This document shows, one piece after another, positions 8,214 through 50,047 of a DNA stretch of 64,000 bases. Made by a program: the position numbers and the translations under genes. The DNA is taken from positions 1-64,000 of the IMG/VR virus record IMGVR_UViG_3300035670_000147. The stretch is one strand, 5' to 3'. The first letter of the stretch is position 1, and each line of letters starts with the position of its first letter. The DNA comes from a virus. The notes under the pieces are model-generated. The model had not been told where the DNA came from. It saw nothing but the letters and a program-made list of their open reading frames with translations, and searched no databases.

Positions 8214-8459
8214 ATGGAGAGTCTGGCGTTTCTAATTTTTTTATTGTGGTCGGCGGTGTTTCTGGGCGGGCCTGTGGCGTATCTGCTCGCGCTGTATAAG
8301 TGGAACATGCTGGCGCTCTTGGCCGCGTGCACGTCGATTTGGCTGGGCGTGTTCTGGTTTGCCACGATCTACACCGGCTGGAAATATCTGGGCCTGCTCT
8401 CGGCGCTGTTGGGGTTGCTGGCGCTGCTCAAAGTGACGGAAAACTTTTATGACAAGTAG
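8214..8459 (+). CDS. small multi-pass membrane protein
   Basis: About three hydrophobic helices; GAGG RBS. Confidence 0.6.
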   Translation: MESLAFLIFLLWSAVFLGGPVAYLLALYKWNMLALLAACTSIWLGVFWFATIYTGWKYLGLLSALLGLLALLKVTENFYDK

Positions 8460-10497
8460 GCGCCCCAGCAAATCGATTCTGGACGAGGACTATCTGCCGG
8501 CTGCTATCGTGAAGACCGCCGCGGAGAAGGTGCGGGCGCTCGACGAAGCCTTTGCCCCCGACTACACGCCGGAACAGTTAGAAAATCTCGGCGTGTACGA
8601 CGCGCTCTATCGGGGCCAAGGACCGCGCTTAGCCAGCCTCGGCGAATGGAAACCGGAGTGGGTGTCTGAGCACGACCCCAAGGGCTGGGCGCAGTGGTAC
8701 AAACGTTACACGGCCGGCCGCAGAATTCCCGACGAAGACGCCCGCCAGATCAAACGCTGGCTGAACTTTAAGTCACGCCACGGCGGGCCATTCAAAAAGA
8801 ACCCCACGGCTCGACGTGGCTGGGCGTTACGCAACTGGGCGATCGACCCGGCGAAACTCGTGACGCCCGAACAGGCCAACCGCGTCGCCGAGATGCTGGA
8901 CGAGTACAAGACCAAGGCGACGCAAAGATATCTTCAGGCGCGCGAGAAGCAGGCCGACCTGATTCCCGAACTCCGACTCCAAGAGCACCAGCAGCGCATT
9001 GCCGACCGCGCCTCGGAAGAAGACCCGCGGCTCTTGGTGTATCACGGCTTAGGCTCGGGAAAATCGCTCTCGGCTTTGGCTGCCGCAGAGGTTGCCAAGA
9101 AGAAACACGGCGATACCTATGGGATCGTGGTGCCGGCCAGCCTGCGCGGGAACTTTCAGAAAGAAGTGGCGAAATTTACCCGCAACTCAGACCCGGAGAT
9201 CATGAGTTATACGGGGCTGGGCATGGGGAAGAAATTTAAAACGCCGCCCGACACGTTGATCATGGACGAGGCTGCCCGCCTGCGCAATCCCCAAGCCGCC
9301 AGCACCCGGGCCGCCACCGAAGCCGCGCGCCAAGCCAAGCGCTTGCTCCTGCTCACCGGCACGCCGATCACAAACGAGCCGAGCGACTTAGCCAGCCTGT
9401 TGTCCATGCTGCACAACAAGCCGATTTCGCCCGACCAGTTCGACGAGAAATACGTGGGCTATAAAAAAGTCCGTCCGGGTTGGTTGGGCTGGCTCAAAGG
9501 CGTCAAGCCGGGTGAAAAGCCGCAGGTCAAAAACGAAGCCGAGTTGCGTGAGTTGCTCAAGGGCAAAGTCGACTATCAACCGAGCAAGACTCCAGAAGGC
9601 GTAAACGTCAATGAAGAAGTCGTGCGCGTTCCGTTGTCGCCGGCGCAGCAGAAAATTCAAAACGCCATCCGCACCAAAATTCCACCGGGCTTCTTGTGGA
9701 AACTCGATCAAGAGTTTCCGTTGTCGCGCGACGAACTGGCGAAACTTAATTCGTTCTTGACCGGGCTGCGCCAAGTGAGTTTAAGCACGCAGCCGTTTCG
9801 GAAAGATAAAGACGTGCTCAAGGCATTCGACCAGTCGAGCAAATTGCAGAAAGCCTATGCCGACCTGCAGCAAGTCTTACAGGAAGACCCGCGCAAGAAG
9901 GCGATTATCTATTCGAACTTCATTGATTCGGGCTTGAAACCGTATGCCGCCGCGCTGGAACGAGCCAAGGTGCCGTACGGTATTTTTCACGGCAGCATTC
10001 CGGTGAAAACCCGGCTGCAGGCGTTGAAAGATTACAACGAAGGGCGGCTGCGGGCGTTGTTATTGGGCCCCGCGGCGGCTGAGGGAATTAGCACGAAGGG
10101 CACGAGTTTAATTCAACTCTTGGACCCGCACTGGAACGAGTCGCGGTTGCAGCAAGCCCGGGGTCGCGGCCTGCGCTTTGACAGCCACGCCGGCCTGCCC
10201 GAAGACCTGAAAAACGTGCTCGTGCGCCGGTATCTCACGCAATCGGAAGAGCCGGGCCTTGTAGGAAAATATTTATTGGGCCGGCAACGGCAGCGCACCG
10301 GTGACGAAGTGCTGGAGCGCCTGACCGCCGAAAAAGAAGAGATTAACGAGGCATTTCGGCGCATTCTCCGCGAAGAGGGTGGTGCTCCCCCGCCCGAGGG
10401 CCCCAGCGTAAAGATATCAAGTATTCTGGACGACCCGCCGGAACCGCCGCTCAACCCTGCTGCAAAAGCATGGTTACAAGCGCAATTTGGTGCCTAA
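8449..10497 (+). CDS. SNF2/SF2 helicase fused to an N-terminal DPxGWxQWY domain
   Basis: HGLGSGKS (motif I), IMDEAA (II), LTGTP (III), AAEGIS, QARGRGLR (VI); N-domain HDPKGWAQWYKRYTAGRR..RQIKRW; EKQA at the junction. Confidence 0.85.
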   Translation: MTSRRPSKSILDEDYLPAAIVKTAAEKVRALDEAFAPDYTPEQLENLGVYDALYRGQGPRLASLGEWKPEWVSEHDPKGWAQWYKRYTAGRRIPDEDARQIKRWLNFKSRHGGPFKKNPTARRGWALRNWAIDPAKLVTPEQANRVAEMLDEYKTKATQRYLQAREKQADLIPELRLQEHQQRIADRASEEDPRLLVYHGLGSGKSLSALAAAEVAKKKHGDTYGIVVPASLRGNFQKEVAKFTRNSDPEIMSYTGLGMGKKFKTPPDTLIMDEAARLRNPQAASTRAATEAARQAKRLLLLTGTPITNEPSDLASLLSMLHNKPISPDQFDEKYVGYKKVRPGWLGWLKGVKPGEKPQVKNEAELRELLKGKVDYQPSKTPEGVNVNEEVVRVPLSPAQQKIQNAIRTKIPPGFLWKLDQEFPLSRDELAKLNSFLTGLRQVSLSTQPFRKDKDVLKAFDQSSKLQKAYADLQQVLQEDPRKKAIIYSNFIDSGLKPYAAALERAKVPYGIFHGSIPVKTRLQALKDYNEGRLRALLLGPAAAEGISTKGTSLIQLLDPHWNESRLQQARGRGLRFDSHAGLPEDLKNVLVRRYLTQSEEPGLVGKYLLGRQRQRTGDEVLERLTAEKEEINEAFRRILREEGGAPPPEGPSVKISSILDDPPEPPLNPAAKAWLQAQFGA

Positions 10498-16227: not shown

Positions 16228-16299
16228 TGCCCGGTAGCACAATGGTAGTGCACGGCACTGTTAATGCTGGGGTTGTAAGTTCGAGTCTTACCCGGGCAG
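16228..16299 (+). tRNA. tRNA-Asn(GTT)
   Basis: Acceptor TGCCCGG/CCGGGCA plus G discriminator; D-loop TGGTA; anticodon arm CGGCA-CTGTTAA-TGCTG; T-arm GTAAG-TTCGAGT-CTTAC; CCA not encoded. Confidence 0.92.
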
Positions 16300-21025: not shown

Positions 21026-22948
21026 ATGGATGGCTTCTCTATTCTTGACGGCGTGTGGCGGAAACCGCTGACGAGCCAGCGCGAATACCACGTCGGCAAC
21101 GCGATTGGGTGGCTGGCGCGCACAGAAAAACAAGCCGCCACGCAACACGCCCTCGCCGGCCGGCTGTATGTGGCGAAAAGCGGCTGGCTACTCCTCTCGG
21201 TTCCGAACGCGCTGGTCCGGGGCGTCTACGACGCGATGACCGCCCCCGGCGCCGAACTTCCGCTGGCGGGCACTATGAATGTGCCCAACGTAGCCAGCGA
21301 TGTCTTGAACGCGCATATTTCGGTCATGACCGCCGAAGAAGTCAAAAAGATCGGCGCTGAAAATATCAATGAGCGCGGGCACATGGTCGGCTACTCGCTG
21401 GGCCACCTAAAAGAAATCACGCCGAGGAACGTTGCCGGCGTGAGCAAGGTCTGGGCGCTGCAGGTCTCGTCGCCCATGCTCTCGGCGATTCGTAAAAGTT
21501 ACGGGCTACAGCCGTTCGTAAATGGCCACCCGTTCCACATTACCGTTGCCGTGCGCCGGAAAAACGTGCTGCAGGCCAATAGCACGCGCAAAGCCGCGGC
21601 GGCCGCTAAAAGCCCGCAGCCCCGTGTGCGCGTCGTCGTGCCGTACAAAGACCAGTATTTGATGGAAACGCTCAATAACTCGAAGTGGCCTGAAAATATC
21701 GGCAAACGGCGATTTATCGGTGGCGGTATCGAAACGGGCGAAACACCAGAACAGGCCGCTGCGCGTGAGTTATTCGAAGAACTCGGCGTGAAGATCAAAC
21801 CGACCGCTTTTCGCGCTTTAGGTAACGATCCGCGCGAAGGATGGCAGCACGAGCATTATCTGGAACTGCCCAAGCACAAACTCAAGCCCGGAAATTTTAA
21901 CGCTACCGTTGGTTCTGACGCCGTGGTCACGCTTTCGCACGGGCTGCCCGAAGGCGACGATTATATGGGGCCAGACATCAAAAAACTGCTTGCTCCTGTT
22001 TTGAAGAAGGCAAATGACCTGCTTCACGGCGGCGCGGCAGACAATATGTCCGACAGTAAATTTCCCAAAGAAGAACTTGCCGAAGGAGCAGAGCATGAGC
22101 GCGAGCACACCGACAATGACCAAATCGCCAAAGAAATTGCCAAAGATCATCTGCAAGAAGACCCGGCCTACTACAAAAAAGTAGAGGCGATTGAAAAAGA
22201 CGCGGCTACAGCAGTGGTGCCGGTACCGCAGCCGCCGAAGCCGCCAGAAATGCGGGAAGATGTAACCGCCCCGCCTGAGATGCCCCCGCCCCCGACAGCC
22301 GACGTCGCGTTTGGTGTTGTCCCGCCGCCGGCTCTCCCGCCATCCGGGCAGCAACTCCAAAGCCCGCAGCAGACCCCAGAGCAAGAAGAGCAAGATAAAC
22401 AAGCAGAGTCTAAGGCGCTCTTGTTAGCCGAACTTCAAGCGGCAAAAGAGCACTCAGATAACAAGCGGTACGAACTAAAAACGCAAATTTTGCGGCGATT
22501 AATGCAACAATCGCCGCAAGACTGGCGTGTAGACGATCCAAAACCCTACCACAAAGGCATTACGCACGGGCCGACCAAGTTTAAGTTTCACGTCGAGCCG
22601 ACAGCGATTCCGGCGTCCGTAAAAGCCGCGGCCCGCCAGCCGCGCAGCGCGTACATGTCGGCGCTCTATAACTCGTACGGTCTGCATCGACCAATTACGT
22701 ACAACTACAACAAAACAGTTGCCGAAAACATTCAGGATCAAATGATGATGGTAAAGCAGCGCGGCGACTTCATGCGCAACGCTAAAATTAATCATCAGCG
22801 ATACATGGCCACGCTCGACCCCAAATACCGGTATGAGTTAGCAATGAAAGCCATGAATAACGAACTCGAAGAAGAGCCGATGGTCGACAAAATGATCGGG
22901 CGGTATGGCGATAGTTTTATGAACACGATTTTTGGGAGGCCGAAATGA
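21026..22948 (+). CDS. multidomain protein: 2H phosphoesterase + Nudix hydrolase + DUF5661-like + others
   Basis: HISV/HITV pair; Nudix box GGGIETGETPEQAAARELFEELG; GAEHEREHT...AKDHL.EDP.YY; domains separated by EKQA, RKAA, KKAN, EKDA, DKQA, VKAA. Confidence 0.8.
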   Translation: MDGFSILDGVWRKPLTSQREYHVGNAIGWLARTEKQAATQHALAGRLYVAKSGWLLLSVPNALVRGVYDAMTAPGAELPLAGTMNVPNVASDVLNAHISVMTAEEVKKIGAENINERGHMVGYSLGHLKEITPRNVAGVSKVWALQVSSPMLSAIRKSYGLQPFVNGHPFHITVAVRRKNVLQANSTRKAAAAAKSPQPRVRVVVPYKDQYLMETLNNSKWPENIGKRRFIGGGIETGETPEQAAARELFEELGVKIKPTAFRALGNDPREGWQHEHYLELPKHKLKPGNFNATVGSDAVVTLSHGLPEGDDYMGPDIKKLLAPVLKKANDLLHGGAADNMSDSKFPKEELAEGAEHEREHTDNDQIAKEIAKDHLQEDPAYYKKVEAIEKDAATAVVPVPQPPKPPEMREDVTAPPEMPPPPTADVAFGVVPPPALPPSGQQLQSPQQTPEQEEQDKQAESKALLLAELQAAKEHSDNKRYELKTQILRRLMQQSPQDWRVDDPKPYHKGITHGPTKFKFHVEPTAIPASVKAAARQPRSAYMSALYNSYGLHRPITYNYNKTVAENIQDQMMMVKQRGDFMRNAKINHQRYMATLDPKYRYELAMKAMNNELEEEPMVDKMIGRYGDSFMNTIFGRPK

Positions 22949-25109: not shown

Positions 25110-25937
25110 ATGGCACGGAAGCCGAAACAGACAACTGAAAGCAAAAACGTCATTCCAACGAGTCAGGCGTTAAAGTATTTGTTCAACCTTGGATATTTCG
25201 GAAAAGACCCGTGGTCGAAGGTTCGGTCAATACGCGGCAAGGAACTGGAAAAGGCCATTGCTGCGTATCAAGAGTTTAACGGGATTGAGCCGTGCGGGTG
25301 TGTAAACGACGTGACGGCCCACCGATTCAATCGGCGGCGGTGCGGGCTGCCGGACTTCGGGCTCACAGACCCGAACGGCGAGCCGTGCAAGTGGCCGATG
25401 AAAAACATTACGTACTATCACGAAATTAAAATGCCGGGATTGAGCGACGAGCAGGTTCGTGAGGCGTATGACGTCGCGTTCAGTCAGTGGGCCGAGGTTT
25501 GCAACATTGAACCGACCCGCGTTGACAGCCCGGCTCGTGCCAACATTTATGCGCGTTCCGGGACCGGCCGAAAAAATCATCTCGATAATCGCGGCGGCAC
25601 ATTAGCGTGGAGTGAGTTACCGTGCGGCGTTCATGAAACTATTCAGTTAGACCAGATGTACGACGAGGCTGAGCCGTGGTCGTTTAACATGGCTATCGCA
25701 GTGATGTGTCACGAACTCGGACACGCGCTTGGCCTGCCGCATTTAAACGATGGTAATTTAATGGCCCCGTACTACGACCCGAATGTGACGGCGCCGCAGA
25801 AAGATGATATTAAAGAAATCGTAAAGTTATACGGGAAACGCGCGCAAAAGTACCCCATTACGAAAGACGCGTCGCTAAAAATTGGCGGCACAATCGTAAT
25901 TAACGGTCGCCCGTATGTACTCGTGCCAAAAACCTGA
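25110..25937 (+). CDS. matrixin-family (M10) metalloprotease with PG-binding-like prodomain
   Basis: AIAAYQEFNGI..G (PGBD-like), cysteine switch RRCGLPD, HELGHALGLPH, Met-turn LMAPYY. Confidence 0.9.
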   Translation: MARKPKQTTESKNVIPTSQALKYLFNLGYFGKDPWSKVRSIRGKELEKAIAAYQEFNGIEPCGCVNDVTAHRFNRRRCGLPDFGLTDPNGEPCKWPMKNITYYHEIKMPGLSDEQVREAYDVAFSQWAEVCNIEPTRVDSPARANIYARSGTGRKNHLDNRGGTLAWSELPCGVHETIQLDQMYDEAEPWSFNMAIAVMCHELGHALGLPHLNDGNLMAPYYDPNVTAPQKDDIKEIVKLYGKRAQKYPITKDASLKIGGTIVINGRPYVLVPKT

Positions 25938-30246: not shown

Positions 30247-31263
30247 ATGGGCTACGCAGAAGACGGCAAAGAAATCATAAATAACATTGTGTTGGGCACC
30301 GGAGTCGGGGCCTCGGCGACGGGGCTGTATTATCTGGCCAAGAAACTGCGGAAGCGGTTTGAAGAGCAGTTGGCTAAGAATGCGCCCAATACGCCGGACT
30401 ATCACGACGTAGCCCTCGACGTGCCGAAACTCGAATCGCCTGCCCAGCCGAAGTTAGCATTTGACGCTTACAGTGTCGCGACACCTCTGGCTACTGGCGG
30501 TGCGAGCGCAATTCTGGCGGCGGCCCTGTCGAACAAAAAAAATAAACTTCGTAACGCCGCTATTGCAGGCGCGCTGGGTGCCGGCGCCGGCGCTGGTTTG
30601 AACACCAAGCCCGTGCACGAGTTTGTCGGTAAAAATATCCCCAGTTCTATCTTCCCGTTTCTCGAACCAGTTATGGGCGGCTCGTGGTTTGACCGCGGCT
30701 CTGGTTACAACGCTTGGAACGCCGCTTTGAATGTAGGTGGCGCCGGCCTTGGACTCGCAGGCGGAAAAGCCCTATACGACATGTCGGTCGCTCCGCAACT
30801 TGAGGTCGAGAAAAAGAAGGAGCACTACAACAGCGTAAACGACGCCCGTAAAAAATACTTTGACGCACTGCTGCGTGACGAAGACGACGACAAGAAGAGC
30901 GACAAGAAAGCCTCGGTAAACGACGCGCTCGAAGCCGCGTACACAGCCTACGCCGAAAAGAAAGCCGACTGGAAGGACTACATCAATCCGCTCAAACTGC
31001 CGCTATTAAAGCAGGTCTTTTACGACTTGCCCAACATGTACGCGGCGGCTGGCGTGGGCGCGACATTAGGTGGCGGCCTAATCGGCGGCAAATACATGTA
31101 CGACAAGACGATGGCGGCGTCAAAAGCCAAGAACTTGGCGAAAGCCCTCGCCGCCAAGGAGCGAATGAAAGATGCGCTGCCAGTGTGGGTCGACCCGCAA
31201 GAACTGGCGCAAATTAAAGACGTAGCCGCCGAGAAGGGCCTAGCCGCTGATCAAGGGGTGTGA
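30247..31263 (+). CDS. Gly-zipper putative virion protein
   Basis: PKLA, DKKAS and EKKAD motifs; repeated Gly-rich helices. Confidence 0.65.
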   Translation: MGYAEDGKEIINNIVLGTGVGASATGLYYLAKKLRKRFEEQLAKNAPNTPDYHDVALDVPKLESPAQPKLAFDAYSVATPLATGGASAILAAALSNKKNKLRNAAIAGALGAGAGAGLNTKPVHEFVGKNIPSSIFPFLEPVMGGSWFDRGSGYNAWNAALNVGGAGLGLAGGKALYDMSVAPQLEVEKKKEHYNSVNDARKKYFDALLRDEDDDKKSDKKASVNDALEAAYTAYAEKKADWKDYINPLKLPLLKQVFYDLPNMYAAAGVGATLGGGLIGGKYMYDKTMAASKAKNLAKALAAKERMKDALPVWVDPQELAQIKDVAAEKGLAADQGV

Positions 31264-31265: not shown

Positions 31266-34200
31266 ATGTCAGACCCGCTGCCCCCGCTGCGCGCCCCCGC
31301 TCCGTTTCCTCCCGCTCCAGCGCTCCCGCAGCCGACACCGCCACAAACGCGCGCATTCGGTGATGTTGGGGCTCTGCGCGACAGCATTTTTAACGAGGCG
31401 CTCCGCTCGGCGTCAGGGATCGAGCCGATTCAGAACGACCTGTATACGTTAAAGTTAACCAACGTCGCGTATACGGGTCCGGAACGCTACTCCCGTAAAG
31501 ACCAAAAGAAAGCGGTGTTAACTCGCGGCTCGTTGGCGCGAAAGTTAACAGGAACGTGGACTTTAATAGAAAATGGCTCGGAAAAGCCTGTCGCTACGCG
31601 ACAGGCTACTATAGCAAACGTGCCATATCTGACCGACTCGGGTACGTTTGTAAACAAAGGTGTCGAATACACGCTGGCACACCAACTCCGACTTCGGCCG
31701 GGCGTGTTCACGCGCGAAAAAGATAACGGCGAACTGGAGTCGCACGTTAACACGCTGCCGGGCAAGGGCCGCTCGCACCGGTATTACATGGACCCCAAAA
31801 CCGGCGAGTTTCAAATCCAAATCGGGCAGGCCAAGATTCCGCTGATGCCGCTGCTGAAGACGCTCGGCGTGCAGGAAAAGCAGATACGGGAAGCGTGGGG
31901 CAACGAGATCGCCTCTGTAAACATGCAGAAGGGCGATGCGGGCACGCTGGATAAACTTTACAGCCGCCTCGTGTTCAAGCCAGACCCCGCCGCAGATCAG
32001 TTAGCCAAGATCAAGGCTATCGCCGCGGAGTTCGCAAAAACAGAGTTAGACGAAGAGGTCACGAAACGAACGCTGGGCAAGCCGTACAAAAATCTCACGC
32101 CGGAAGCGATTCTCGACATCACCAAAAAACTCATCGCTGTTAATCGAAAAGAAGCCGACAGTGATGACCGAGACAGCATGACGTTTCAGCAAGTCTTTGG
32201 GCCGGAGGATTTGATATCAGAACGGTTTGTGAAAGATAAGACCGCGTTGCGTCAATTGTTGTGGAAAGCGACCGCAAAGAAGTCGCTCGACCATATTCCC
32301 AGCGGCGTATTTAACAAAGCCATTACCGCTGCGCTAATTGGCTCTGGGCTGGGTTCATCGCTCGAAGAAATTAATCCGGCAGAAATCTTTGACCATCAAA
32401 CGCGGGTCACCCGCCTTGGTGAGGGCGGCATTGGTTCGATGGACGCCGTACCGGCGGAATCGCGCAGCGTCCAGCCCAGCCATTTCGGGTTTATCGACTA
32501 CCTGCGCACGCCCGAGTCTGGCAAGGTGGGCGTCGACATGCGCTTCGCGTCGGGCGCCCGCAAGTTAGGTAATAACTTGCACACGTTTGTCGTGCCCGTC
32601 AAGAACGCTAACACTGGCGAGACAGAATATAAAACCCCGCAAGAACTGTCGGACATGCCGCTCATGTTTCCGGGCGAAGAGAAGTCCGACCTGCCGATGG
32701 TTGCGGCGCTTGTTAACGGCAAGATCAAATACGTGCCACGCAAGGACGCGCAGTACACCGTGCCGAACATGGACAACACTTTTTCGTCGCTGACAAACAT
32801 GGTGCCGATGAAAAGCATGGTAAAAGGCCAGCGCGTCATCATGGGCAGCCGCATGTTTACGCAGGCGCTTCCGCTTGAAAATGCTGAAGCCCCGTTTGTG
32901 CAGTCCGCTAAGTTTGATAGCGACGGGTCTATATCGCACGAAGACGAAATGGGCGAAAAGTTAGGCGCGATTAAAGCCCAAGTTGGCGGGCAGGTTCTGT
33001 CTGTCACGCCAGACGACATGGTTATTCGCGACAAGGACGGGCAAAAACACACGATAGACCTGTACAACGACATGCCGTTCAACCGAAAGACGTTTTGGAC
33101 GCAGACGCCGACAGTCAAGCCCGGCGATACGGTGCAGCCCGGCCAACTTATTGCCACAAGCAACTTTACTGACAAAAGCGGCTCGGCCGCGCTGGGGCTG
33201 AACTTGCGCGTAGGCTACACGCCGTTTCGTGGTCGGAACTATGAAGACGCGGTTGTGATATCTGAATCGGCGGCCAAGAAACTTACTAGCCAGCACATGT
33301 ATCAGCACGAAGCCGAGTGGGACGACAACACGCACGTCGGAAAAAAGTCTTTTTTGAGTTTGTTTCCCGCCGAATATGACAAGAAGGTGCTAGAAAACTT
33401 TGACGACAACGGCGCAATTAAAAAGGGTTCAATCGTAAACTTCGGTGATCCGCTTGTGCTCGTCGCCAAGAAGCGCGATCAGGTGTACGGCAAAGTACAC
33501 CGCGGCCGAGCGGGTGCTTTTGCAAATGAAACAATTACGTGGGAACATCATTCTCCGGGCGTTGTGACTGACGTTGAGCACACAAAAAAGGGCGTATCGG
33601 TCGTCGTGAAGTCGCAGGCGCAGATGGAGGTTGGCGATAAAATTACGGGTCGTTTCGGCGATAAGGGCGTTGTGTCTGAAATTGTGCCGGACGACCAGAT
33701 GCCGCAGGACGCGAAGGGTCGCCCGCTTGAAATTCTGGTCAGTCCGCTCGGCCTTATAAACCGCGTAAACCCGGCGCAAATTATTGAAGCGGCTCTCGGA
33801 AAAGTTGCCGAAAAAACTGGCAAGCCGTTCAAAATCAAAGACTTCGACAACGACAATGATTTGATCGAAATGGCGATGGCTGAGTTGACTAAAAACGGTC
33901 TGACAGACACCGAAGACCTGATAGACCCCGAGACTGGGCGCAAGATTCGCGGCGTGCTGACTGGCAATCGTTTCTTTATGAAACTGCACCATACGGCAGA
34001 GTCGAAGGGGCAGGGGCGGTCTATTGGTGGTTACACGGCAGAAGGCACGCCGGCAAAAGGCGGCAGCGAAGGCGCCAAGCGTGTCGGCATGTTGGAACTG
34101 GGTGCGCTTCTTTCGCACGGTGCCGGCAAAGTAGTCCGCGACGCCAAAATGGTGCGCGGACAGGCTAACCCTGAGTATTGGACGCAGTTCATGGCCGGTT

Positions 34201-35696
34201 ACGACCCGCCGCTGCCCAAGGTGCCGCACGTCTACGAAAAGTTTGTGAATCAATTGCGAGGCGCCGGCGTTAACGCAGTTCGGACCGGTACGAAAACGCA
34301 CATCATGGCGCTGACCGACAAGAACATCGACGAGTTAGCGGGCGACCGTGAAATCCAGAACGCCGAAACCGTGGATTGGAAGGGCAACCTTAAGCCCGTA
34401 AAGGGCGGGTTGTTTGACGAAACACTCACCGGCGGGCATAACGGCAATCGCTGGTCAAAAATAACATTGCACGAACCGATGCCGAATCCAATCATGGAAG
34501 AACCAATTCGGCGTACGCTTGGGCTGACAGAAAAGAAATTTCGCGCGATACTCGCCGGGCAAGAAAAACTGGGCGACAAAACTGGCCCGACAGCAATTCA
34601 CGAAGCGTTGAAAGCCGTTAACCTGCCGCGCGCAATCGAACAAGCGCGTGCTGATATTAAGTCTGGTCGCCGCACACTGCGCGACGCGGCGGTGCGTCGC
34701 TTGGCGTTTTTGAAGGGCGCCGAAGCAACGGGCGTGCACCCCAAAGACTGGATGCAAACAAAGGTAGGCGTCTTGCCGCCGGCATTTCGCCCCGTGTCGA
34801 CGATGGGCGCAAAAAGAATGCAACTTATCGACGACGCAAACTATTTGTACAAAGAACTGCTTGATTCAAATAACGTGCTGAAAGAAGCGTCTGGATTACT
34901 GTCGGATGTGGGCAACGAGCGGCTGTCGCTGTACGACTCGATGAAAGCCGTCTCAGGTTTAGGCGACCCGCAGCACCCGAAAAACGTCGAGCGAAATGTC
35001 CGCGGATTTTTGTCAAAGATATTTGGTGATAGCCCCAAGTTCGGCACGATGCAGCGCAAGTTGTTGTCGAGCACCGTCGATCTTGTAGGTCGTGCGGTAA
35101 TTTCGCCCAACCCAGACCTCGACATGGACGAGGTAGCGCTGCCCGAAGACAAGGCGTGGGAGATTTACAAGCCGTTCGTGGTTCGCGGCCTTATTCGGCG
35201 CGGAATGCCGCGCATGAACGCGCTGCGCGCCGTTGAAGAACGCAACAAAGAAGCGTTTGCTGAGTTAAATACGCAGATGGGGTCGAAACCAATTGTTATT
35301 AACCGCGCTCCGGTGCTGCATCGATACGGCGTAATGGCGTTTTACCCGCGTCTTACCAAGAACAAAGTCATGGAAGTCAACCCGGTTATTACCAAGGGGT
35401 TCGGGGCCGATTTCGACGGCGACGCGATGCAATATCACGTCCCCAGCACCGACGATGCCGCGAAAGAAGCCATAGAAAAAATGCTGCCTAGCCGCAATTT
35501 GTTTGCGGCGTCCAACTTTAAAGCGCATTACGTGCCCAACAAAGATTACCAAACTGGTGTATACTTAGCGTCCAGCAAGATTAATAGCAAATCAAAACCG
35601 CGCGTATATCGCACCAAAAAAGACGCTCTCGCGGCCTACCGCCGCGGTGACATCGATGTAGACACGCCGGTACATATTGTGGAAGATAAAGCCTGA
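31266..35696 (+). CDS. rpoB: DNA-directed RNA polymerase beta fused to the N-terminal half of beta'
   Basis: Beta motifs TPESGKVG, MGSRMFTQA, NYEDAVVIS, GDKITGRFGDKGV, RVGMLELGAL; then beta' motifs GGLFD, VLPPAFRP, VDLVGRAVI, NRAPVLHR and catalytic GADFDGD. Confidence 0.95.
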   Translation: MSDPLPPLRAPAPFPPAPALPQPTPPQTRAFGDVGALRDSIFNEALRSASGIEPIQNDLYTLKLTNVAYTGPERYSRKDQKKAVLTRGSLARKLTGTWTLIENGSEKPVATRQATIANVPYLTDSGTFVNKGVEYTLAHQLRLRPGVFTREKDNGELESHVNTLPGKGRSHRYYMDPKTGEFQIQIGQAKIPLMPLLKTLGVQEKQIREAWGNEIASVNMQKGDAGTLDKLYSRLVFKPDPAADQLAKIKAIAAEFAKTELDEEVTKRTLGKPYKNLTPEAILDITKKLIAVNRKEADSDDRDSMTFQQVFGPEDLISERFVKDKTALRQLLWKATAKKSLDHIPSGVFNKAITAALIGSGLGSSLEEINPAEIFDHQTRVTRLGEGGIGSMDAVPAESRSVQPSHFGFIDYLRTPESGKVGVDMRFASGARKLGNNLHTFVVPVKNANTGETEYKTPQELSDMPLMFPGEEKSDLPMVAALVNGKIKYVPRKDAQYTVPNMDNTFSSLTNMVPMKSMVKGQRVIMGSRMFTQALPLENAEAPFVQSAKFDSDGSISHEDEMGEKLGAIKAQVGGQVLSVTPDDMVIRDKDGQKHTIDLYNDMPFNRKTFWTQTPTVKPGDTVQPGQLIATSNFTDKSGSAALGLNLRVGYTPFRGRNYEDAVVISESAAKKLTSQHMYQHEAEWDDNTHVGKKSFLSLFPAEYDKKVLENFDDNGAIKKGSIVNFGDPLVLVAKKRDQVYGKVHRGRAGAFANETITWEHHSPGVVTDVEHTKKGVSVVVKSQAQMEVGDKITGRFGDKGVVSEIVPDDQMPQDAKGRPLEILVSPLGLINRVNPAQIIEAALGKVAEKTGKPFKIKDFDNDNDLIEMAMAELTKNGLTDTEDLIDPETGRKIRGVLTGNRFFMKLHHTAESKGQGRSIGGYTAEGTPAKGGSEGAKRVGMLELGALLSHGAGKVVRDAKMVRGQANPEYWTQFMAGYDPPLPKVPHVYEKFVNQLRGAGVNAVRTGTKTHIMALTDKNIDELAGDREIQNAETVDWKGNLKPVKGGLFDETLTGGHNGNRWSKITLHEPMPNPIMEEPIRRTLGLTEKKFRAILAGQEKLGDKTGPTAIHEALKAVNLPRAIEQARADIKSGRRTLRDAAVRRLAFLKGAEATGVHPKDWMQTKVGVLPPAFRPVSTMGAKRMQLIDDANYLYKELLDSNNVLKEASGLLSDVGNERLSLYDSMKAVSGLGDPQHPKNVERNVRGFLSKIFGDSPKFGTMQRKLLSSTVDLVGRAVISPNPDLDMDEVALPEDKAWEIYKPFVVRGLIRRGMPRMNALRAVEERNKEAFAELNTQMGSKPIVINRAPVLHRYGVMAFYPRLTKNKVMEVNPVITKGFGADFDGDAMQYHVPSTDDAAKEAIEKMLPSRNLFAASNFKAHYVPNKDYQTGVYLASSKINSKSKPRVYRTKKDALAAYRRGDIDVDTPVHIVEDKA

Positions 35697-35716
35697 TTGT
35701 TCACACGGAGGTAAAC

Positions 35717-36448
35717 ATGGATTACACGGTAAATCCGGAACTGCTCGCGCTTGCGAACCGGCGCGTATTCGAAAAATCGGCGGTAGTGCCTCCGCAGGGC
35801 GGCATGGGTGTCGACCAGTCGCAGCAACTCGGTATGGCGCCCCCGACCCCGGACGCAATGGGCGCGCAACAGCCGGTTGACCCGGCACAGGCCGCCGCCG
35901 CTGCTGGCGGCGCGCCCCCAGCCGCTCCTCCCGGCATGATGGACCCGGCTATGTTGGGCGCGTTGCCACCCGCCACTCCGACCGCGCCGGCTCCCGGCGC
36001 CGCAGGGCAAAAATTGAAGCCCGAGCAGATGATGCAAATGCTCGATTATCGGCTGTACAACATGCAGCAGCAACTCACGGCGATTATGAACGCTATGGGC
36101 GTGCAAGTCGCGCCGGAGTCGCTTGTGTTGCCTCCCGGCACTACTGGCGCGCCGCCCGCAGAAACTGCGCTTCCGGGCGGCCCCATGGCCCCGCCGCCGG
36201 CACCAGAAGGCGCGGCCGGCCCGCAACCCCCCGGCGGGCCCATGCCTCCCGGAGGTCCGCTGCCTCCGGGCGCACCGCCTGCAGACCCGGCAGCCGGTAA
36301 GCAAGCGAACTGGTGGGAGCGCGTCGAGGCGCACGCCGTTAGCCGCGTAGGCCGCCCCGTAAGCCCCGACATTGTGACCATTGATCTGCAAGCGAAAGTC
36401 GGCGCCGCGAAGGCGTTGCACCGGAGTTTAGCGGACGATGCTCGTTAA
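35717..36448 (+). CDS. Pro/Gly-rich putative virion protein
   Basis: GGAGG RBS; FEKSA and GKQA motifs. Confidence 0.7.
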   Translation: MDYTVNPELLALANRRVFEKSAVVPPQGGMGVDQSQQLGMAPPTPDAMGAQQPVDPAQAAAAAGGAPPAAPPGMMDPAMLGALPPATPTAPAPGAAGQKLKPEQMMQMLDYRLYNMQQQLTAIMNAMGVQVAPESLVLPPGTTGAPPAETALPGGPMAPPPAPEGAAGPQPPGGPMPPGGPLPPGAPPADPAAGKQANWWERVEAHAVSRVGRPVSPDIVTIDLQAKVGAAKALHRSLADDAR

Positions 36449-36653
36449 AACTCAGCACAACTTAATGCCGGCGGAGCAGAAAGCCCACAGCGTTGTCGTT
36501 GAAGACGATTTAGGTAATCCTATTTTTGTCGCAACGCATTTGGTGGACGGCATTCTGTACTCAGCCGTCGGGGATAAAGATTTTAAGGCTGTGCTCAACA
36601 TGGTCGGGCTGACGAATGCGCCCGAAGTTAAAGAATTACCGCCGCCGAAGTGA
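36438..36653 (+). CDS. hypothetical phage protein
   Basis: 71 aa ORF between the RNAP genes. Confidence 0.65.
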   Translation: MLVKTQHNLMPAEQKAHSVVVEDDLGNPIFVATHLVDGILYSAVGDKDFKAVLNMVGLTNAPEVKELPPPK

Positions 36654-36659
36654 TATATC

Positions 36660-38612
36660 GTGCTAAAAACCACCCTCGGCCAGTTAATGATTAACGAAGC
36701 GCTTCCTGAAGACATGCGCGATTACGAGCGCGTGTTGGACAAGAAGACTATGGGCGCGCTGGCGACTGATCTGGCAAAACGATATCCGGATCGTTATCGC
36801 GAGGTGATGAAAAAAATTCACGACGTCTCTCGCGACGTGGCATACACGACGGGCGGTCTTTCGATGGGCTTGAAGGACATTCGCCCCACGTTTGCCAGCC
36901 AACACGCGCAAATTAAAGTGCGCAAAGAACTGCGGCAGATTCTGGCAGACACGAGTTTGTCAGACAAAGAACGCGAGTTGCGAATCCTCAAACTCGCCGC
37001 CGAGACGCAGCAGAAACTTGTCGAAGACGTATTTAACGAAGCCCGCGACGCGAATAACCCGCTTGCCCATCAAGTGCTGGCCGGCGCGACTGGTAACAAA
37101 TTCATGTTAAATTCGCTACTGGGCGCCGACCTGCAATACGTAGACCACCGCGACCAGCCGATTCCGCTGCCCGTAATGCGGAGTTACAGTCGGGGCTTAA
37201 CTCCTGCAGAGTACTTCGCGGCGTCTTTCGGCACGCGTAAGGGTGTTATTGACGTAAAGACTGCCACAGCAGACGCCGGATTTTACGGCAAGCAACTAAC
37301 GCAGATGGCGCACCGTTTACTCGTTACAGCCGACGATGACGACGACGAAGACAGGCTTAGAACTGCGCACAATCGCGGCCTGCCGTCCGACGTCGACGAT
37401 CCGGACAACGAAGGCGCTTTTTTAGCGCGACCTGTGGGGCCATACAAGCGAAACACTGTACTGACGCCCAAAATTCTCAAAGATATCAAAGCGATGGGCG
37501 TAAAAGATATTTTAGTGAGAAGCCCGCTCGTCGGTGGGCCAGAAGATGGCGGCGTGTACGCCAAAGACGTCGGATACCGCGAAAAAAGTCGGGTGCCGCC
37601 GGTCGGCGATTATGTCGGCATTGCCGCTGCGCAAGCGCTGTCTGAGCCAGTCTCGCAATCGCAACTATCGTCTAAGCACTCGGGCGGTGTTGGCGGCGCA
37701 AAGTCTATTTCTGGCTTCAAGGCTATCAACGCGCTAGTACAAGTGCCGCGCAAATATCCTGACGGCGCGACGCACGCTCAGCGCGAGGGTCGCGTGCAGG
37801 AAATACGCCCGGCGGCGCAGGGCGGATTTTATGTCACGGTAGACGGCGAAGATCATTACGTCCCGGCCGACCGGCAGGTCTCCGTAAAAAAAGGCGACGT
37901 GCTGGAGGCCGGCGACGTGCTGTCCGACGGCATGCCAAACCCGGCCGAAATTGTTAAGCACAAAGGCGTCGGCGAGGGCCGTAAATACTTTGTGCAGGCA
38001 ATGCGCCAAGTTTTAGGCAACTCAGGTATCACCGCTCAGCGCCGAAACATTGAACTCGTGGCGCGGGGTTTGATTAATCACGTTCGGCTGACCGACGAAT
38101 ATGGCGATTACGCTCCGGACGACATTATTCCGTATTCCATGCTTGAGCGCTCGTGGCGCCCGCGCTCCGGAGCCGTGGCGTCAGCGCCCAGCGCGCTTGT
38201 AAATCATTATTTGGAAGAACCCGTACTGCACTACTCGGTCGGCACAAAAATAACAAAAAGCGTCGCTGACAATTTAAAGAAGTACGGTATTGCAACAGTG
38301 CAGGCTCACAAGCAGCCGCCGCCGTTCGAGTCAGAGATGGTGCGCGGCATGGCGAATATATCGAACGACCCCGACTGGATGACCCGCATGCTGGGTTCTT
38401 ATCAGGAGCGCGGGTTTTTAAACAGTGTTCACCGCGGACTGGCCAGCGACACGGCCGGCAGCAGTTACGTTCCGGCGCTGGCACGAGGCGAAGAATTTGG
38501 CAATTCTGGCCCCACAAGCGGCTGGAAACCTGCGCCGCCCTCCGGTAGCATATTGCAGCCCGTCCCCAAGCCCCCGACAAGTCCGCTAGGCTCTGAGCCA
38601 AAAACACTGTAA
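36660..38612 (+). CDS. rpoC: RNA polymerase beta' C-terminal subunit
   Basis: TTLGQL..N, GLTPAEYF..GTRKG..TADAG (bridge helix), VGIAAAQALSEP.SQ.QL..KHSGG (trigger loop). Confidence 0.92.
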   Translation: MLKTTLGQLMINEALPEDMRDYERVLDKKTMGALATDLAKRYPDRYREVMKKIHDVSRDVAYTTGGLSMGLKDIRPTFASQHAQIKVRKELRQILADTSLSDKERELRILKLAAETQQKLVEDVFNEARDANNPLAHQVLAGATGNKFMLNSLLGADLQYVDHRDQPIPLPVMRSYSRGLTPAEYFAASFGTRKGVIDVKTATADAGFYGKQLTQMAHRLLVTADDDDDEDRLRTAHNRGLPSDVDDPDNEGAFLARPVGPYKRNTVLTPKILKDIKAMGVKDILVRSPLVGGPEDGGVYAKDVGYREKSRVPPVGDYVGIAAAQALSEPVSQSQLSSKHSGGVGGAKSISGFKAINALVQVPRKYPDGATHAQREGRVQEIRPAAQGGFYVTVDGEDHYVPADRQVSVKKGDVLEAGDVLSDGMPNPAEIVKHKGVGEGRKYFVQAMRQVLGNSGITAQRRNIELVARGLINHVRLTDEYGDYAPDDIIPYSMLERSWRPRSGAVASAPSALVNHYLEEPVLHYSVGTKITKSVADNLKKYGIATVQAHKQPPPFESEMVRGMANISNDPDWMTRMLGSYQERGFLNSVHRGLASDTAGSSYVPALARGEEFGNSGPTSGWKPAPPSGSILQPVPKPPTSPLGSEPKTL

Positions 38613-41071: not shown

Positions 41072-41470
41072 ATGGCAAATACAGTCTGGTCCGGTAAAAA
41101 AGAATTTACAGCAGTTAGCGGCGCCGAGACGGTAGTTTCCGTGCCGGCGCCTGCCCGCGGAGAACTGCGCGGCTACACGCTTGTGCAGTTAGACGGTGCG
41201 GCCGCGGGTATTACGGCGTCGCTGTATACCAGCACAAAATCCCCTGAAGAGATTTATCATTTAGTTAATCTCAGCACGGCGGCTACTGTAACTTCTGATT
41301 CTGATGTCGTGGCTATCTTAGAAAACAATAGCCTCTCTATTGCTTATCAAAATCGTGACGGAACGCCGTCGCTGCATCAGCGGTATTTGTACCTCAAAAT
41401 TACACCCGCGGGCACCGGCACAAAGTCTTTTGTGCTGTCGATTACGGTGGAAGATTCGCGGGTTAAGTAA
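41072..41470 (+). CDS. beta-rich putative structural protein
   Basis: 132 aa, Thr/Ser/Val-rich. Confidence 0.6.
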   Translation: MANTVWSGKKEFTAVSGAETVVSVPAPARGELRGYTLVQLDGAAAGITASLYTSTKSPEEIYHLVNLSTAATVTSDSDVVAILENNSLSIAYQNRDGTPSLHQRYLYLKITPAGTGTKSFVLSITVEDSRVK

Positions 41471-42440: not shown

Positions 42441-44375
42441 ATGCGTTCACTCAGCAAGGAAGCCGAGCAAAAATTAATTGGCGCGATCGAAAAGGCCGCC
42501 ACGCTCGTTAACGAAGGCGCGACCCCGACAGACGCAATTATCAAAAGCGCGCGCGAACACGATATTCCGTCGGGCCACATTAACCTTATGGTGCACGCTT
42601 ACAACACCGGGCGCACCACGACGCAACGAGAAAAAGGAGAAAGCACGCTGGAAAAAGCGGCGGAATTTCCGTTGGCAGACGTTAAAGACGTGTTAAACGC
42701 CCTGTATCCCGAAACGGTAAAGTCCTCGTCTGAGATTAAGCGCGCAGAGGCGGTCTCCACGGAGTATGCGCTGCCAGTCGCTGGCATGCTGGCCCGCCGG
42801 CGCGGAGAGATGCAAAAGGCCGCTGCGGCTCAAGTCGCGCTGCCAGAAAAGACTTGGACGCCGCCACCGCGCGACGCCCACGCGGCTGTCATGCGCGCGC
42901 AAAGCGAAAAAGTTGCGGCGCAGCGGGCGGAAGAAGAAAAACGGCGGCAAGCGTCAGCGGCGTACAGCAAGGCCGCCGCCGCCATGGATGAAATAAATAT
43001 TTATTTCAGGACGCCCGGCAACATGCTATTCGGCGACGCTGTCCGAGAAGTTGGCTTACGGTTCGGCGACCCGGGTGTTTCAGTGCTGCAAAAAGTTGCG
43101 GCCGTATACCCGCACTTTACGAAACAGGCAGATAGCAAGAAAGCGCACTTTGGCGCAGACCCTGTTTACGAGTTGGTGCAAAATGTTCTGGACGCGGTAG
43201 GTGCGTATAACAGCGCGCAAGGAGCCGTAGTCACAAAAAAATCTGAAGCGGTCAGTAAGAAAACCGCACCAGAATTTCTTACAGGCTCGATCCTGACAGC
43301 GATTCAAGAAGCGCCGCTGACATTAAAAGCCGCCGAAAGAAAAGGCGGCCCGGGAACGAACCCGCTCGGCGACCGAGCCAAGAACACGAACAAGCAGCCG
43401 CCAAAAGACAAGACGCCCCATATACCCTCGTTAAAGTCTACTCCCAAGCGTGAAGAGCCAGAGCCCGCCCCCGGCCCGGCACCGTCAGCGAATATTGACC
43501 CTCGCACAGCCGTTGACGGCCCGGATGACTGGGACGTGGGACCGACCCCCGAATTAGACGCGGCACTCGAAGAAATATCTTTTGGAGAGCAGTTAGACCG
43601 GAATAGGGCCGACGCAGCCGCGCGCAACCAAGAATACGCGCGGCAAAAAATGCTTGACGAAGCCAGCGAATACGAACGCGCCGAAAAAGAAAAACTGCAA
43701 GACGCTTTATTTAACGAAAGCGAAACAAAGCGTGTGCAGCAAGAGCGGGACGAGGCGTATGCCAGAAAACTTCGGGACGAAGACTTGGCCGACGACGCCG
43801 CGGCCGCAGAACAACTGAAAGCCGAGCAAGCACAAGCCGCCGAAACAAAGAAACAACGGCAAGAAACTTGGAGCAAAGGTAAAGACATCGGCAAAAACTT
43901 TGGCGAAGGTGTTAGCAAAACCATTAAAGACACGGTCGGCGAGCCGCTGACCGGGCCGGCAAAATTTATTGGACAACTGCTCGGGGCGAAGGACCTGAGC
44001 GCCCTATCACCCATTAAAGATAAAGACCCGAAAAGCATGCTGCGCGAGCAGTATCAACAACTCACTGATCCAAGCCACGAAAATGCTCTCAAGACAATTC
44101 GCGCAAAAAGCATTGTCCACGACATGGTGCTAAACGACCCAGTTATCTCGGGTTACGACCCGCAAGACGTCGCGATGGCATTTAACGAGATTGCGGAGTT
44201 GGCTCCGAGCCTCATTGACGCCCCGGGCATGATCCGCCCGCTGCTGCGTAAGCGCTTAGAGTCGGGACAGTTGGCCGACTTTGACGTTAAGCAAATTTTG
44301 GAGATGGACAAACTCCGGGCCGACCGCGATAAGACTTTGATGGACGTCAAAGACAAAACTCTCAACCTGCTGTAG
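42441..44375 (+). CDS. putative head/core protein rich in K-x-A motifs
   Basis: IEKAA, IKSA, LEKAA, QKAA, QKVA, TKQA, LKAA; coiled-coil middle region. Confidence 0.6.
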   Translation: MRSLSKEAEQKLIGAIEKAATLVNEGATPTDAIIKSAREHDIPSGHINLMVHAYNTGRTTTQREKGESTLEKAAEFPLADVKDVLNALYPETVKSSSEIKRAEAVSTEYALPVAGMLARRRGEMQKAAAAQVALPEKTWTPPPRDAHAAVMRAQSEKVAAQRAEEEKRRQASAAYSKAAAAMDEINIYFRTPGNMLFGDAVREVGLRFGDPGVSVLQKVAAVYPHFTKQADSKKAHFGADPVYELVQNVLDAVGAYNSAQGAVVTKKSEAVSKKTAPEFLTGSILTAIQEAPLTLKAAERKGGPGTNPLGDRAKNTNKQPPKDKTPHIPSLKSTPKREEPEPAPGPAPSANIDPRTAVDGPDDWDVGPTPELDAALEEISFGEQLDRNRADAAARNQEYARQKMLDEASEYERAEKEKLQDALFNESETKRVQQERDEAYARKLRDEDLADDAAAAEQLKAEQAQAAETKKQRQETWSKGKDIGKNFGEGVSKTIKDTVGEPLTGPAKFIGQLLGAKDLSALSPIKDKDPKSMLREQYQQLTDPSHENALKTIRAKSIVHDMVLNDPVISGYDPQDVAMAFNEIAELAPSLIDAPGMIRPLLRKRLESGQLADFDVKQILEMDKLRADRDKTLMDVKDKTLNLL

Positions 44376-48260: not shown

Positions 48261-48298
48261 ACTAATCAACCCTAATAGAAGACATGGAGGTCTTTAAA

Positions 48299-49225
48299 AT
48301 GCCCACTCAGCAAGAAGTTCAACTGCTCAACGAGACGCTTTTTGAGCAACTTGACACCCCCGGCATGCAGAAGCAGGCCATTGACGCGGTTAACGACTTC
48401 ACGCGCACCAAAATGCGTGAAGACGGGTTCTACCGGCGGATTATGCCGCCGCTGACCATCACCAACGACGAACTGGACCGTCAGGTTGACACTGACAAGC
48501 CGGTCAAGGTGGTGGACAAGGAGCCCGATTCCCCGGCGGCTGTGTCGCTCCCGTTTGCGACACTCCCGATCAACTTCTACATCCGTGGCCCGCGCTACCG
48601 CGTCATGTTTGACCGGATCGTGTCGCCCCGCGCTGTGAAGGACGTCGACGAACTCCGGACGTATGTCATCGACATCCGTCAGGTGCTCAGCGACAACATG
48701 ATCAAGGACATGCTCGCCGAGGAGGACTCCAAGTTCATCAACGCGATGGACGCCGCGGTTGGCGCCGCGGACACGAACAACGCGTTGTCTGGCGTTCCGC
48801 AGAACGTCACGATCTCGGGCGGAATCACCCGCGAGACGATCGTTGACGCGCTGAAGGTCATGCCGTCGACTCCCAGCCACTTCGAGGTGGAGACTTGCTT
48901 GGTGAACAACATCACCATCAAGGAACTGCTGAAGTTCGGCCGCGACGAGATGGGCGGTGACTTCTCGCAGGACATCATCAAGAACGGTTGGGCGGAGACC
49001 AACTTCCTCAACTGCCGCTGGATTGTCACGATCAAGCGGAATCTTGTGCCGAACGATGTACTGTACATGTTCGCCTCGCCGAAGTTTATCGGCAAGAACT
49101 ACGAGTTGGAGCCCACCACGATGTACATCCGTCGCGAGGCTTACATGCTTGAGTACTTTGCGTACAACACGCAGGGCGGCTCGTTCGGTCACACGAACGG
49201 TCTGGCCAAGGTAACGTTTGTCTGA
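48299..49225 (+). CDS. major capsid protein (HK97 fold)
   Basis: About 308 aa; REDGFYRRIMPP and DMLAEEDSKF backbone-helix pattern; strong codon bias; position after protease, scaffold and decoration genes. Confidence 0.75.
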   Translation: MPTQQEVQLLNETLFEQLDTPGMQKQAIDAVNDFTRTKMREDGFYRRIMPPLTITNDELDRQVDTDKPVKVVDKEPDSPAAVSLPFATLPINFYIRGPRYRVMFDRIVSPRAVKDVDELRTYVIDIRQVLSDNMIKDMLAEEDSKFINAMDAAVGAADTNNALSGVPQNVTISGGITRETIVDALKVMPSTPSHFEVETCLVNNITIKELLKFGRDEMGGDFSQDIIKNGWAETNFLNCRWIVTIKRNLVPNDVLYMFASPKFIGKNYELEPTTMYIRREAYMLEYFAYNTQGGSFGHTNGLAKVTFV

Positions 49226-49256: not shown

Positions 49257-49649
49257 ATGTCCGAGAACATTAAGGAAGCGGCAGAGCAGGCTTACGCCAC
49301 AGTTGTGACGCAACTTGCTGCGCCATATTTCTTCGAAAAACTCGCCGCGCACGGCATTACGCCGGGCTCGGAGGGTGAAGCCGCAGAAATGTGGACTGCC
49401 GCGCAGAAATTGCACGTGCTCTATACGGCGGAACAGGAAAAAACCGCTGCGGCAAGGCACAGTGGTCTGGCTGCTGTAAATCAGCAACTGGATGCGGTGC
49501 TTGCGGCGGCGACGGGCACCGACGGCGGCGACGAGAAGCAGGCTGCGTTTTATGACGTAGCCGCTCTCGCCGCAGGCCGGCCCGAAATTGCCGATGCTGT
49601 ATTAACCCTGCAAGCCGCCGCTGCTGCGGCCATGCAATCCGCAGAGTAA
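49257..49649 (+). CDS. Ala-rich head-associated protein
   Basis: AAGGAG RBS; FEKLA, EKTAA and EKQAA motifs. Confidence 0.65.
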   Translation: MSENIKEAAEQAYATVVTQLAAPYFFEKLAAHGITPGSEGEAAEMWTAAQKLHVLYTAEQEKTAAARHSGLAAVNQQLDAVLAAATGTDGGDEKQAAFYDVAALAAGRPEIADAVLTLQAAAAAAMQSAE

Positions 49650-49660
49650 CGGAGTCAAAA

Positions 49661-50047
49661 ATGTCCATCACTTCTTCTGATCTTTATACTGTTGTAAAGA
49701 ACGTTTCGGGCAAGACCCTGACGTTCGGTTTTCTGGGGGCGCACGGCAAGACGCTGGAAAGCAACGCTACGTTCACCGTCCCCGGCGACCTTGTAACGAA
49801 ACTGGGCGCGCAACGCAGCCAGCGGAAGTTCAAGGCGCTGGAGCGCGCGCTGACAGAAAATTTGTTGGAAATTGTCAGGTCTCCGTCGGTCTACTTGCTC
49901 AGCGAGTCTGGCAACGTAACCCGCGAACTGGCGATGGCGTCGACGAAAGAACTCGGCACAACTGCCCCGTCTTACAAGGGTGGCGGCGACTTTGTCGAGG
50001 GCGATCTTGACGCCAACGAACCCGAGCCTGTGCCCGAAGGCGCCTGA
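49661..50047 (+). CDS. putative structural protein
   Basis: 128 aa; last gene before a terminator. Confidence 0.65.
   Translation: MSITSSDLYTVVKNVSGKTLTFGFLGAHGKTLESNATFTVPGDLVTKLGAQRSQRKFKALERALTENLLEIVRSPSVYLLSESGNVTRELAMASTKELGTTAPSYKGGGDFVEGDLDANEPEPVPEGA

Follow-up and report, generated by a model that had tools for sequence, protein, structure and literature searches.

The β and β' subunits of RNA polymerase (RNAP) are fused in Helicobacter and Wolbachia, and in cyanobacteria and plastids the β' subunit is divided into γ and β' chains shortly after the catalytic barrel. The RNAP described here is both fused and split. It is encoded at positions 31,266 to 38,612 of the window, a 64,000-nucleotide stretch of viral DNA that forms the first 64 kb of the 73,293-bp IMG/VR virus record IMGVR_UViG_3300035670_000147 (CheckV completeness 36%). 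The source is an uncultured phage with a genome of about 200 kb. Chain 1 joins β to the N-terminal part of β' (β'N), and chain 2 is a separate C-terminal part of β' (β'C). The Helicobacter and Wolbachia fusions share the direct β-β' link with the window, but their β' is whole. Cyanobacteria share a cut shortly after the catalytic barrel, but their β is separate and their γ chain is about 65 residues longer than chain 1. All of these bacteria, unlike the window, keep the zinc sites, α and ω.

Several multisubunit RNAPs have been described in phages. The jumbo-phage RNAP reviews, in their available text, describe two RNAP sets with split β and β' and no sigma, and contain no β-β'N fusion with a phage sigma (PMC7598289, PMC7824862, PMC13282480). 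The phiKZ and AR9 enzymes, as presented in the accessible parts of two of these reviews, resemble that of the window in having no α or ω, a β' split after the barrel, a virion form (a probable one in the case of the window) and an RNAP-linked SNF2 helicase (PMC7598289, PMC7824862). They differ in their two RNAP sets, split β, lack of a fusion, lack of a recognisable sigma and far greater divergence, whereas the window encodes one set with an intact β fused to β'N, and its relatives carry a sigma-70-type factor. An earlier reading of the letters, hereafter the original prediction, held that phiKZ-type RNAPs are split differently and are more divergent. The split β and the divergence agree with this, but the phiKZ-type β' is also cut after the catalytic barrel, 'following the DPBB domain' (double-psi β-barrel), as in cyanobacteria, according to the available text (PMC7598289). 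Thus, the β' split does not distinguish the window from these phages; its distinguishing features are the sigma, the β-β'N fusion and the presence of one RNAP set.

The mReC phages were screened for separate β and β' of at least 800 amino acids (aa) with the motif NADxDGD, and their capsid proteins match PF07068, of the gp23 type (PMC7481178, Weinheimer & Aylward 2020; available text). Like the window, they are tailed phages whose β and β' are recognisable by cellular profiles and form a clade apart from cells. The window falls outside the mReC definition as given in that text: its chains are fused and split, its catalytic loop is GADFDGD and its capsid protein has no Pfam match. The fused-and-split family would mostly fail the mReC filters. 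Cobetia phage Carin-5 and Rhizobium phages (Kleczkowskaviridae), of about 150 kb, also have bacterial-type β and β' genes, but their β' is unsplit (1083-1127 aa) and unfused to β. In Carin-5 the order is sigma, then β', then β, with sigma directly upstream.

When 50,697 phage records were searched by tblastn, four showed the layout of the window and covered 96% of the fusion; they belong to the closest cultured relatives, Salmonella phage Arash and the Vibrio phages D69, D148 and D181. A cluster look-up of close relatives turned up no named isolate. Arash (OQ632216.1) encodes the pair as gp206 (1525 aa) and gp216 (606 aa), and D69 holds the same pair. Identity to the window is 32% for the fusion and 26-28% for β'C. 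Arash and D69 share with the window the β-β'N fusion, a separate β'C starting from the TTxG motif, the zinc-ribbon deletion, the Lys-His pair of the trigger loop, the SNF2 helicase, the capsid protein and the location of the RNAP genes among head genes; relatives of the window also encode a homologue of the Arash sigma. Unlike the window, they retain 1-2 Cys in chain 1 and the four Cys of a second zinc site, and they are without the two open reading frames (ORFs) that separate the chains in the window; the catalytic loop of D69 is AADYDGD. The available text of the Arash paper names gp206 plainly 'subunit beta' and leaves the fusion unmentioned (PMC10585845). The original prediction had asked itself whether the same architecture was already described in a characterised phage group. 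It is indeed present in cultured phages, but our full-text literature search found no description of a β-β'N fusion with a separate β'C. Among the multisubunit RNAPs of phages, this architecture is a new variant, found widely and also in phages that have been cultured.

Architecture of the two chains

Residues of the fusion are numbered from the alternative GTG start (protein P0001), and the recorded protein begins at the ATG (Table 1). The β part of chain 1 matches Pfam Rpb2_3 and Rpb2_6 (second catalytic barrel) over residues 368-926 (E 1e-49), and the β' part matches Rpb1_1 and Rpb1_2 over residues 1153-1406 (E 7e-23). Solved bacterial β chains align with residues ~110-1027 (E 6e-66) and solved β' chains with residues 1081-1474, the counterpart of B. 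subtilis β' 142-539. An AlphaFold model of residues 931-1478 (predicted local distance difference test, pLDDT, 78.8) has its best structural matches among β' and cyanobacterial γ chains (E 1e-26), the top match being a cyanobacterial γ. The two parts are read in a single open frame. In an alignment of 14 fused phage proteins with the concatenated β and β' of bacterial loci, residue ~1011 is the end of the last conserved β helix and residue 1012 corresponds to β' at about residues 5-10. The junction has no linker, and the variable acidic tail of bacterial β is missing.

Further into β', the segment GGHN-GN replaces about 27 bacterial residues, including all four Cys, between 'GLF..(I/L)FGP' and 'RMGHI'. 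The same zinc-ribbon deletion is found in D69 and Arash and therefore predates the clade of the window. The β' clamp-helix (coiled-coil) region is kept; in bacteria, these helices are the docking place of sigma region 2. The catalytic aspartates D1384, D1386 and D1388 do not vary across a set of 20 diverse relatives. The first position of the catalytic loop varies among 120 close homologues listed by a word-indexed search (79-100% identity, contigs up to 212 kb): it is Gly in 105, Asn in 13 and Ala in 2. The original prediction set GADFDGD against NADFDGD; the motif is where it was placed, but the substitution is not fixed, as these homologues and the AADYDGD of D69 show. Chain 1 stops about 90 residues past GADFDGD.

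Chain 2 begins with VLKTTLGQ and aligns with β' from ~553-578 to ~1166, and its first 90 residues gave no match to cyanobacterial chains. Judged by these alignments, the two chains jointly span the whole of β and β' in 2128 aa. The 19 bacterial rpoB/rpoC frame pairs used in the tree have summed lengths of about 2270-2760 aa, counted from stop to stop. Compared with the Thermus sequence TQLTMRTFHTGG, the trigger-loop tip of β'C keeps the His and carries Met to Leu, Arg to Ser and Phe to Lys substitutions. The trigger-loop His and the catalytic residues are invariant among relatives. The second zinc site of β' retains exactly four Cys in Arash and D69, whereas in the window these Cys have been substituted. 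Both β' zinc sites of bacterial RNAP are thus gone in the window, one by deletion of the ribbon and the other by substitution, and the clade of the window has lost the second zinc site together with every Cys.

The two ORFs between the chains keep their position between the RNAP genes in 31 of the 32 loci that reach that far, and in a relative at 52% identity (L036) the 243-aa ORF is reduced to its core. D69 and Arash have no homologues of either. Neither ORF matched Pfam or PHROGs, and an AlphaFold model of the 71-aa ORF (pLDDT 74) gave no PDB match at E ≤ 0.001. Complex prediction of β'C with the 71-aa ORF gave an uninformative score of 0.00.

This architecture had been read correctly in advance in every detail. 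The aligned junction lies inside the range of ~34260-34310 given for β running without a stop into β', and the N-terminal Cys4 zinc domain of β' is absent as claimed. The chain breaks just before TTxG, two genes intervene before β'C, and the trigger loop is a variant one, substituted at three positions. The description as a streamlined bacterial-type phage RNAP also holds, given the lengths above and the neighbourhood of head and tail genes in a phage.

Table 1. Positions of the polymerase genes, their landmarks and the associated helicase in the window.
Feature	Position	Strand	Basis or remark
SNF2-type helicase, 682 aa, 0 Cys	8449..10497	+	homologue of Arash virion gp217, 35% identity
β-β'N fusion gene (chain 1)	31266..35696	+	ATG 31266, recorded protein of 1476 aa; alternative GTG 31260, 1478 aa; Pfam and solved-chain matches
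Fusion junction	34290..34295	+	alignment with bacterial β+β'
Deleted β' zinc ribbon	34431..34448	+	GGHNGN, residues 1058-1063; alignments
β' clamp-helix (coiled-coil) region, kept	34662..34793	+	alignment to B. subtilis β' ~190-245
Catalytic loop GADFDGD	35403..35423	+	residues 1382-1388
Pro/Ala-rich ORF, 243 aa, 0 Cys, conserved	35717..36448	+	
Small β-rich ORF, 71 aa, 0 Cys, conserved	36438..36653	+	
β'C gene (chain 2), 650 aa, bridge helix and trigger loop half	36660..38612	+	Rpb1_5
Second β' zinc site, lost	37521..37574	+	Cys ligands replaced (SPLVGGPEDGGVYAKDVG)
Trigger-loop tip QSQLSSKHSGG	37656..37688	+	alignment

Authenticity, distribution and phylogeny

We searched a 779-aa query across the junction against 1.84 billion cluster representatives (50% clusters), which gave 1872 matches at E ≤ 1e-30. 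The junction is crossed in one chain by all of the best 150 of these 1872 representatives (44-61% identity). The N-terminal β part is also reached in 140 of the 150, and the other 10 are fragments beginning within β. The β'C gene lies downstream on the same strand in 32 of 36 related viral loci, the remaining four contigs ending too early. The split is as fixed as the fusion, since none of 120 longer β'C relatives holds any β or β'N content; every one of them starts at β'C residues 1-19. The fused-and-split layout is genuine and very widespread, and the phage group that carries it abounds in metagenomes from several habitats.

Bacterial rpoB and rpoC are adjacent, so that loss of a stop codon could mimic a fusion, and the apparent fusion might then reflect an assembly or frameshift error or bacterial rpoBC DNA misjoined to a phage contig. 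The original prediction had named an artefact at the junction among the findings that would refute it. Such an artefact is ruled out by the 150 fused representatives, by the same layout in the complete isolate genomes of Arash and D69, and by contigs of three sequencing runs (two of them possibly the own source of the window DNA) that pass the junction without an indel. The fused RNAP is also only 23-29% identical to bacterial rpoB-rpoC regions, and its clade is split from all 25 bacterial rows of the tree described below. Together, these data make an artefact or misjoined bacterial DNA extremely improbable. In a ~95% identical relative from a different study, 36 of the 39 listed differences in the fused frame are at codon position 3, and purifying selection thus spans the junction.

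The tree was built from 40 rows and 1426 columns under LG+G4 with a short search. Its bacterial rows are best tblastn matches, mostly from Patescibacteria, Actinomycetota and Chloroflexota, and neither an outgroup nor any phiKZ-type sequence is included. The 14 fused phage proteins lie on one side of a branch (Shimodaira-Hasegawa-like approximate likelihood ratio test, SH-aLRT, 100) and the 25 bacterial rows on the other (SH-aLRT 100). Among the phage proteins, Arash and D69 form the sister group of the 12 environmental sequences. The topology supports one origin of the fused layout and gives no sign of a recent capture from any phylum sampled. The phylogeny with cellular and phage RNAPs that had been proposed as a check yields one fused phage clade outside the sampled bacteria, from rows without phiKZ-type sequences, and the independent acquisition suggested in the original prediction is a conjecture beyond that scope.

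The fused genes of relatives (P0125-P0274) contain many insertions of about 330-520 aa, 1-5 per gene, and their proteins reach 3350 aa. The insertions recur at P0001 residues ~420, 611, 660, 796, 836, 915, 940, 1062, 1256-1263 and ~1388-1390. The last of these sites, directly after the catalytic DFDGD, is the commonest, and the gene of the window is insertion-free. Pfam intein and LAGLIDADG domains were found in the insertions tested (P0139, P0127, P0167). Many relatives of about 50-54% identity (P0300-P0419) carry a C-terminal extension of β'C of 500-1400 aa, usually Cys-free. These extensions are variable, with AAA_18/AAA_33 kinase-like P-loop, acylphosphatase-like, DUF5661 and DUF4269 domains, and are unrelated to the downstream ORF of the window. 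They may be cargo travelling with the polymerase.

Initiation factors and probable virion packaging

We propose, with a probability of about 70%, that the window encodes a sigma-dependent, two-chain bacterial-type core that is probably packed in the virion and injected; we infer its activity, its independence of α and its packaging from the comparisons below. Chain 1, in which β is followed directly by β' through the catalytic barrel, and chain 2, with the remaining β', would jointly form the whole catalytic core, and the covalent β-β' link would substitute for the assembly role of α2 and ω. A sigma-like protein of the phage, with its gene in another part of the ~200-kb genome, would choose the promoters. 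Together with this sigma and the SNF2 helicase, the enzyme would be made late with the structural proteins and packed in the head. Injected with the DNA, it would initiate transcription of the phage genome with no need of the host polymerase. A protein with neither zinc site and no Cys would be suited to passing through the tail and refolding free of metal or disulphide trouble.

Searches of the 73-kb record detected no sigma, α or ω gene. Pfam searches for α and ω (PF01000, PF01192) were negative in all five records examined (that of the window, the complete relatives G001, G002 and G003, and Arash) and positive in 14 of 14 control genomes. Each record has one locus per catalytic barrel, and all three complete relatives have a single RNAP set. 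Sigma70_r2 matches occur in G003, adjoining its RNAP genes, and in Arash. G001 and G002 each encode a sigma-like ORF, of 280 and 268 aa, respectively. The G002 protein matches Sigma70_r3 with 36.8 bits against a curated cut-off of 25.3, with r4 just under its cut-off. It is 29% identical over 137 aa to the Arash virion sigma gp10 (E 9e-21) and unrelated to gp196. The original prediction saw neither α nor sigma in the window; this extends to the whole record and, for α, to all five records, but a sigma-like homologue of gp10 is encoded in complete relatives.

The two phage chains might instead be a partial core that forms a hybrid enzyme with host α2, and possibly ω. Such a hybrid would agree with the lack of phage α and ω in the five records and with the presence of α-like subunits in every cellular core, as stated in the available text of PMC7598289. 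The same text reports that the AR9 non-virion core is active without α and that phiKZ-type cores have no α or ω homologues. Moreover, an injected enzyme would meet host α only after entry, and the covalent fusion is an alternative route of assembly. We therefore regard a hybrid with host subunits as quite improbable.

Evidence bearing on packaging comes from the Cys content, the gene context and the virion of Arash. There is no Cys in the 2442 aa of the fusion, β'C and the two intervening ORFs. Cys is likewise missing from the SNF2 helicase, the ORF upstream of the fusion (30247-31263), a Nudix protein and several further long ORFs, against a Cys content of 0.3-4% in most of the remaining ORFs of the window. 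Among the 120 listed close homologues, the fused RNAP is Cys-free in 111; six others, with 6-13 Cys, are forms of 1805-1878 aa, and their additional length is compatible with intein insertions. The sigma-like proteins of G001 and G002 and the Arash proteins gp10 and gp217 are Cys-free as well. The N4-like virion RNAP, termed 'cysteine-free' in the available text of an Alteromonas podovirus paper (PMC3821669), is a precedent for a packaged Cys-free polymerase.

A homologue of the major capsid protein (Arash gp226), without a Pfam match, is encoded at 48284-49225, and the window also holds homologues of the Arash structural proteins gp222, gp233, gp234 and gp236. Because capsid and tail homologues surround them, the RNAP genes lie within a structural module, as in Arash, where the helicase gene gp217 adjoins β'C. 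Mass spectrometry of Arash virions detected gp206, gp216, sigma gp10 and helicase gp217, according to the available text (PMC10585845). In the same data, gp206 and gp216 are among the most abundant proteins, and gp206 has the most spectra of all virion proteins, with 100% coverage. The virion packaging that was raised as a possibility from the location of the genes is plausible by analogy with these abundant homologues.

A functional phage RNAP could also remain unpackaged and be made after infection for middle and late genes, its detection in Arash particles being carry-over. The Arash authors themselves raise carry-over for abundant enzymes in the available text (PMC10585845). Since each genome has one RNAP set, transcription of more than one gene class must in any case fall to this enzyme, unless it divides the task with the host polymerase. 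Against an unpackaged enzyme stand the spectra and coverage of gp206, the position of the RNAP genes within the structural module, and the Cys-free state of the RNAP, helicase and sigma-like proteins alike. We consider it unlikely.

Several points weigh against the sigma-dependent, injected two-chain core. The presence of both chains in virions is known from the mass spectrometry of Arash only, an argument by analogy for the window, and the authors of that study state that abundant enzymes may be carry-over contaminants (PMC10585845; available text). The 73-kb record has no copy of the sigma-like ORF, and the sigma gene is thus not on the fragment that contains the window, as is expected because the record is a fragment. 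A scan for sigma-70-like promoters between 27 and 47 kb gave 9 sites against 8.6 expected, which is the chance level; the -10-like boxes TATACT, TACAAT and TATAAT were seen by eye in some intergenic regions. No RNA run appeared among the sequencing runs listed. Host α or ω could be recruited. In E. coli, the trigger-loop Arg and the catalytic-loop Asn are residues that matter. They are changed in the window, Arg to Ser and Asn to Gly, and the conservation of these changes argues for function, not for full bacterial-like activity. Finally, packaging does not strictly need a Cys-free enzyme, since the second zinc site and a few Cys persist in Arash and D69.

A bolder form of the proposal, which we put forward tentatively and with less than even confidence, is a self-sufficient minimal RNAP made of two chains and one sigma-like factor. 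It would have no α, ω, zinc or Cys, the fusion replacing the α platform, and would be packaged with the SNF2 helicase, injected and independent of the host. Cellular RNAPs all need an α-like assembly platform and carry structural zinc. If the bolder form is true, an abundant natural enzyme that kept recognisable bacterial sequence and a sigma-70-type factor while dropping α, ω, both zinc sites and all Cys would show the true minimum of this machine. Injected phage polymerases would then be of three kinds, the N4 type, the phiKZ type and this one. The cultured relatives Arash and Vibrio phage D69 make reconstitution and cryo-electron microscopy feasible.

Neighbouring genes and further observations

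The ORF directly upstream of the fusion (30247-31263) has no Pfam or PHROG match, and its Atlas matches are viral clusters only. It belongs to a set of Cys-free ORFs at 2584-3921, 3955-6303, 8449-10497, 21026-22948, 30247-31263, 41072-41470, 42441-44375 and 49257-50047. Several of these exceed 600 aa, and the set includes a 640-aa protein with a Nudix motif. These ORFs may encode proteins that travel with the DNA.

Three contigs filed under bacteria also carry fused or possibly fused RNAP genes. A contig of Candidatus Adlerbacteria (L065, 2710-7284) has a stop-free frame of at least 1525 aa that runs from rpoB into rpoC and reaches the contig end; it may be a natural β-β' fusion in a bacterium of the candidate phyla radiation. 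Two short contigs under bacterial metagenome-assembled genomes, named 'bacterium' (L049) and 'uncultured Desulfovibrio' (L050), carry a phage-type fused RNAP with 94% and 35% identity, respectively, and are probably phage DNA binned with bacteria.

Elsewhere on the plus strand of the window, a 344-aa ORF (18573-19607) matches the actin-fold Pfam family Volactin (PF25216) over its full length (E 2e-58). A matrixin-type (M10) metallopeptidase with a peptidoglycan-binding domain is encoded at 25110-25937, and a tRNA-Asn gene is located at 16228-16299.

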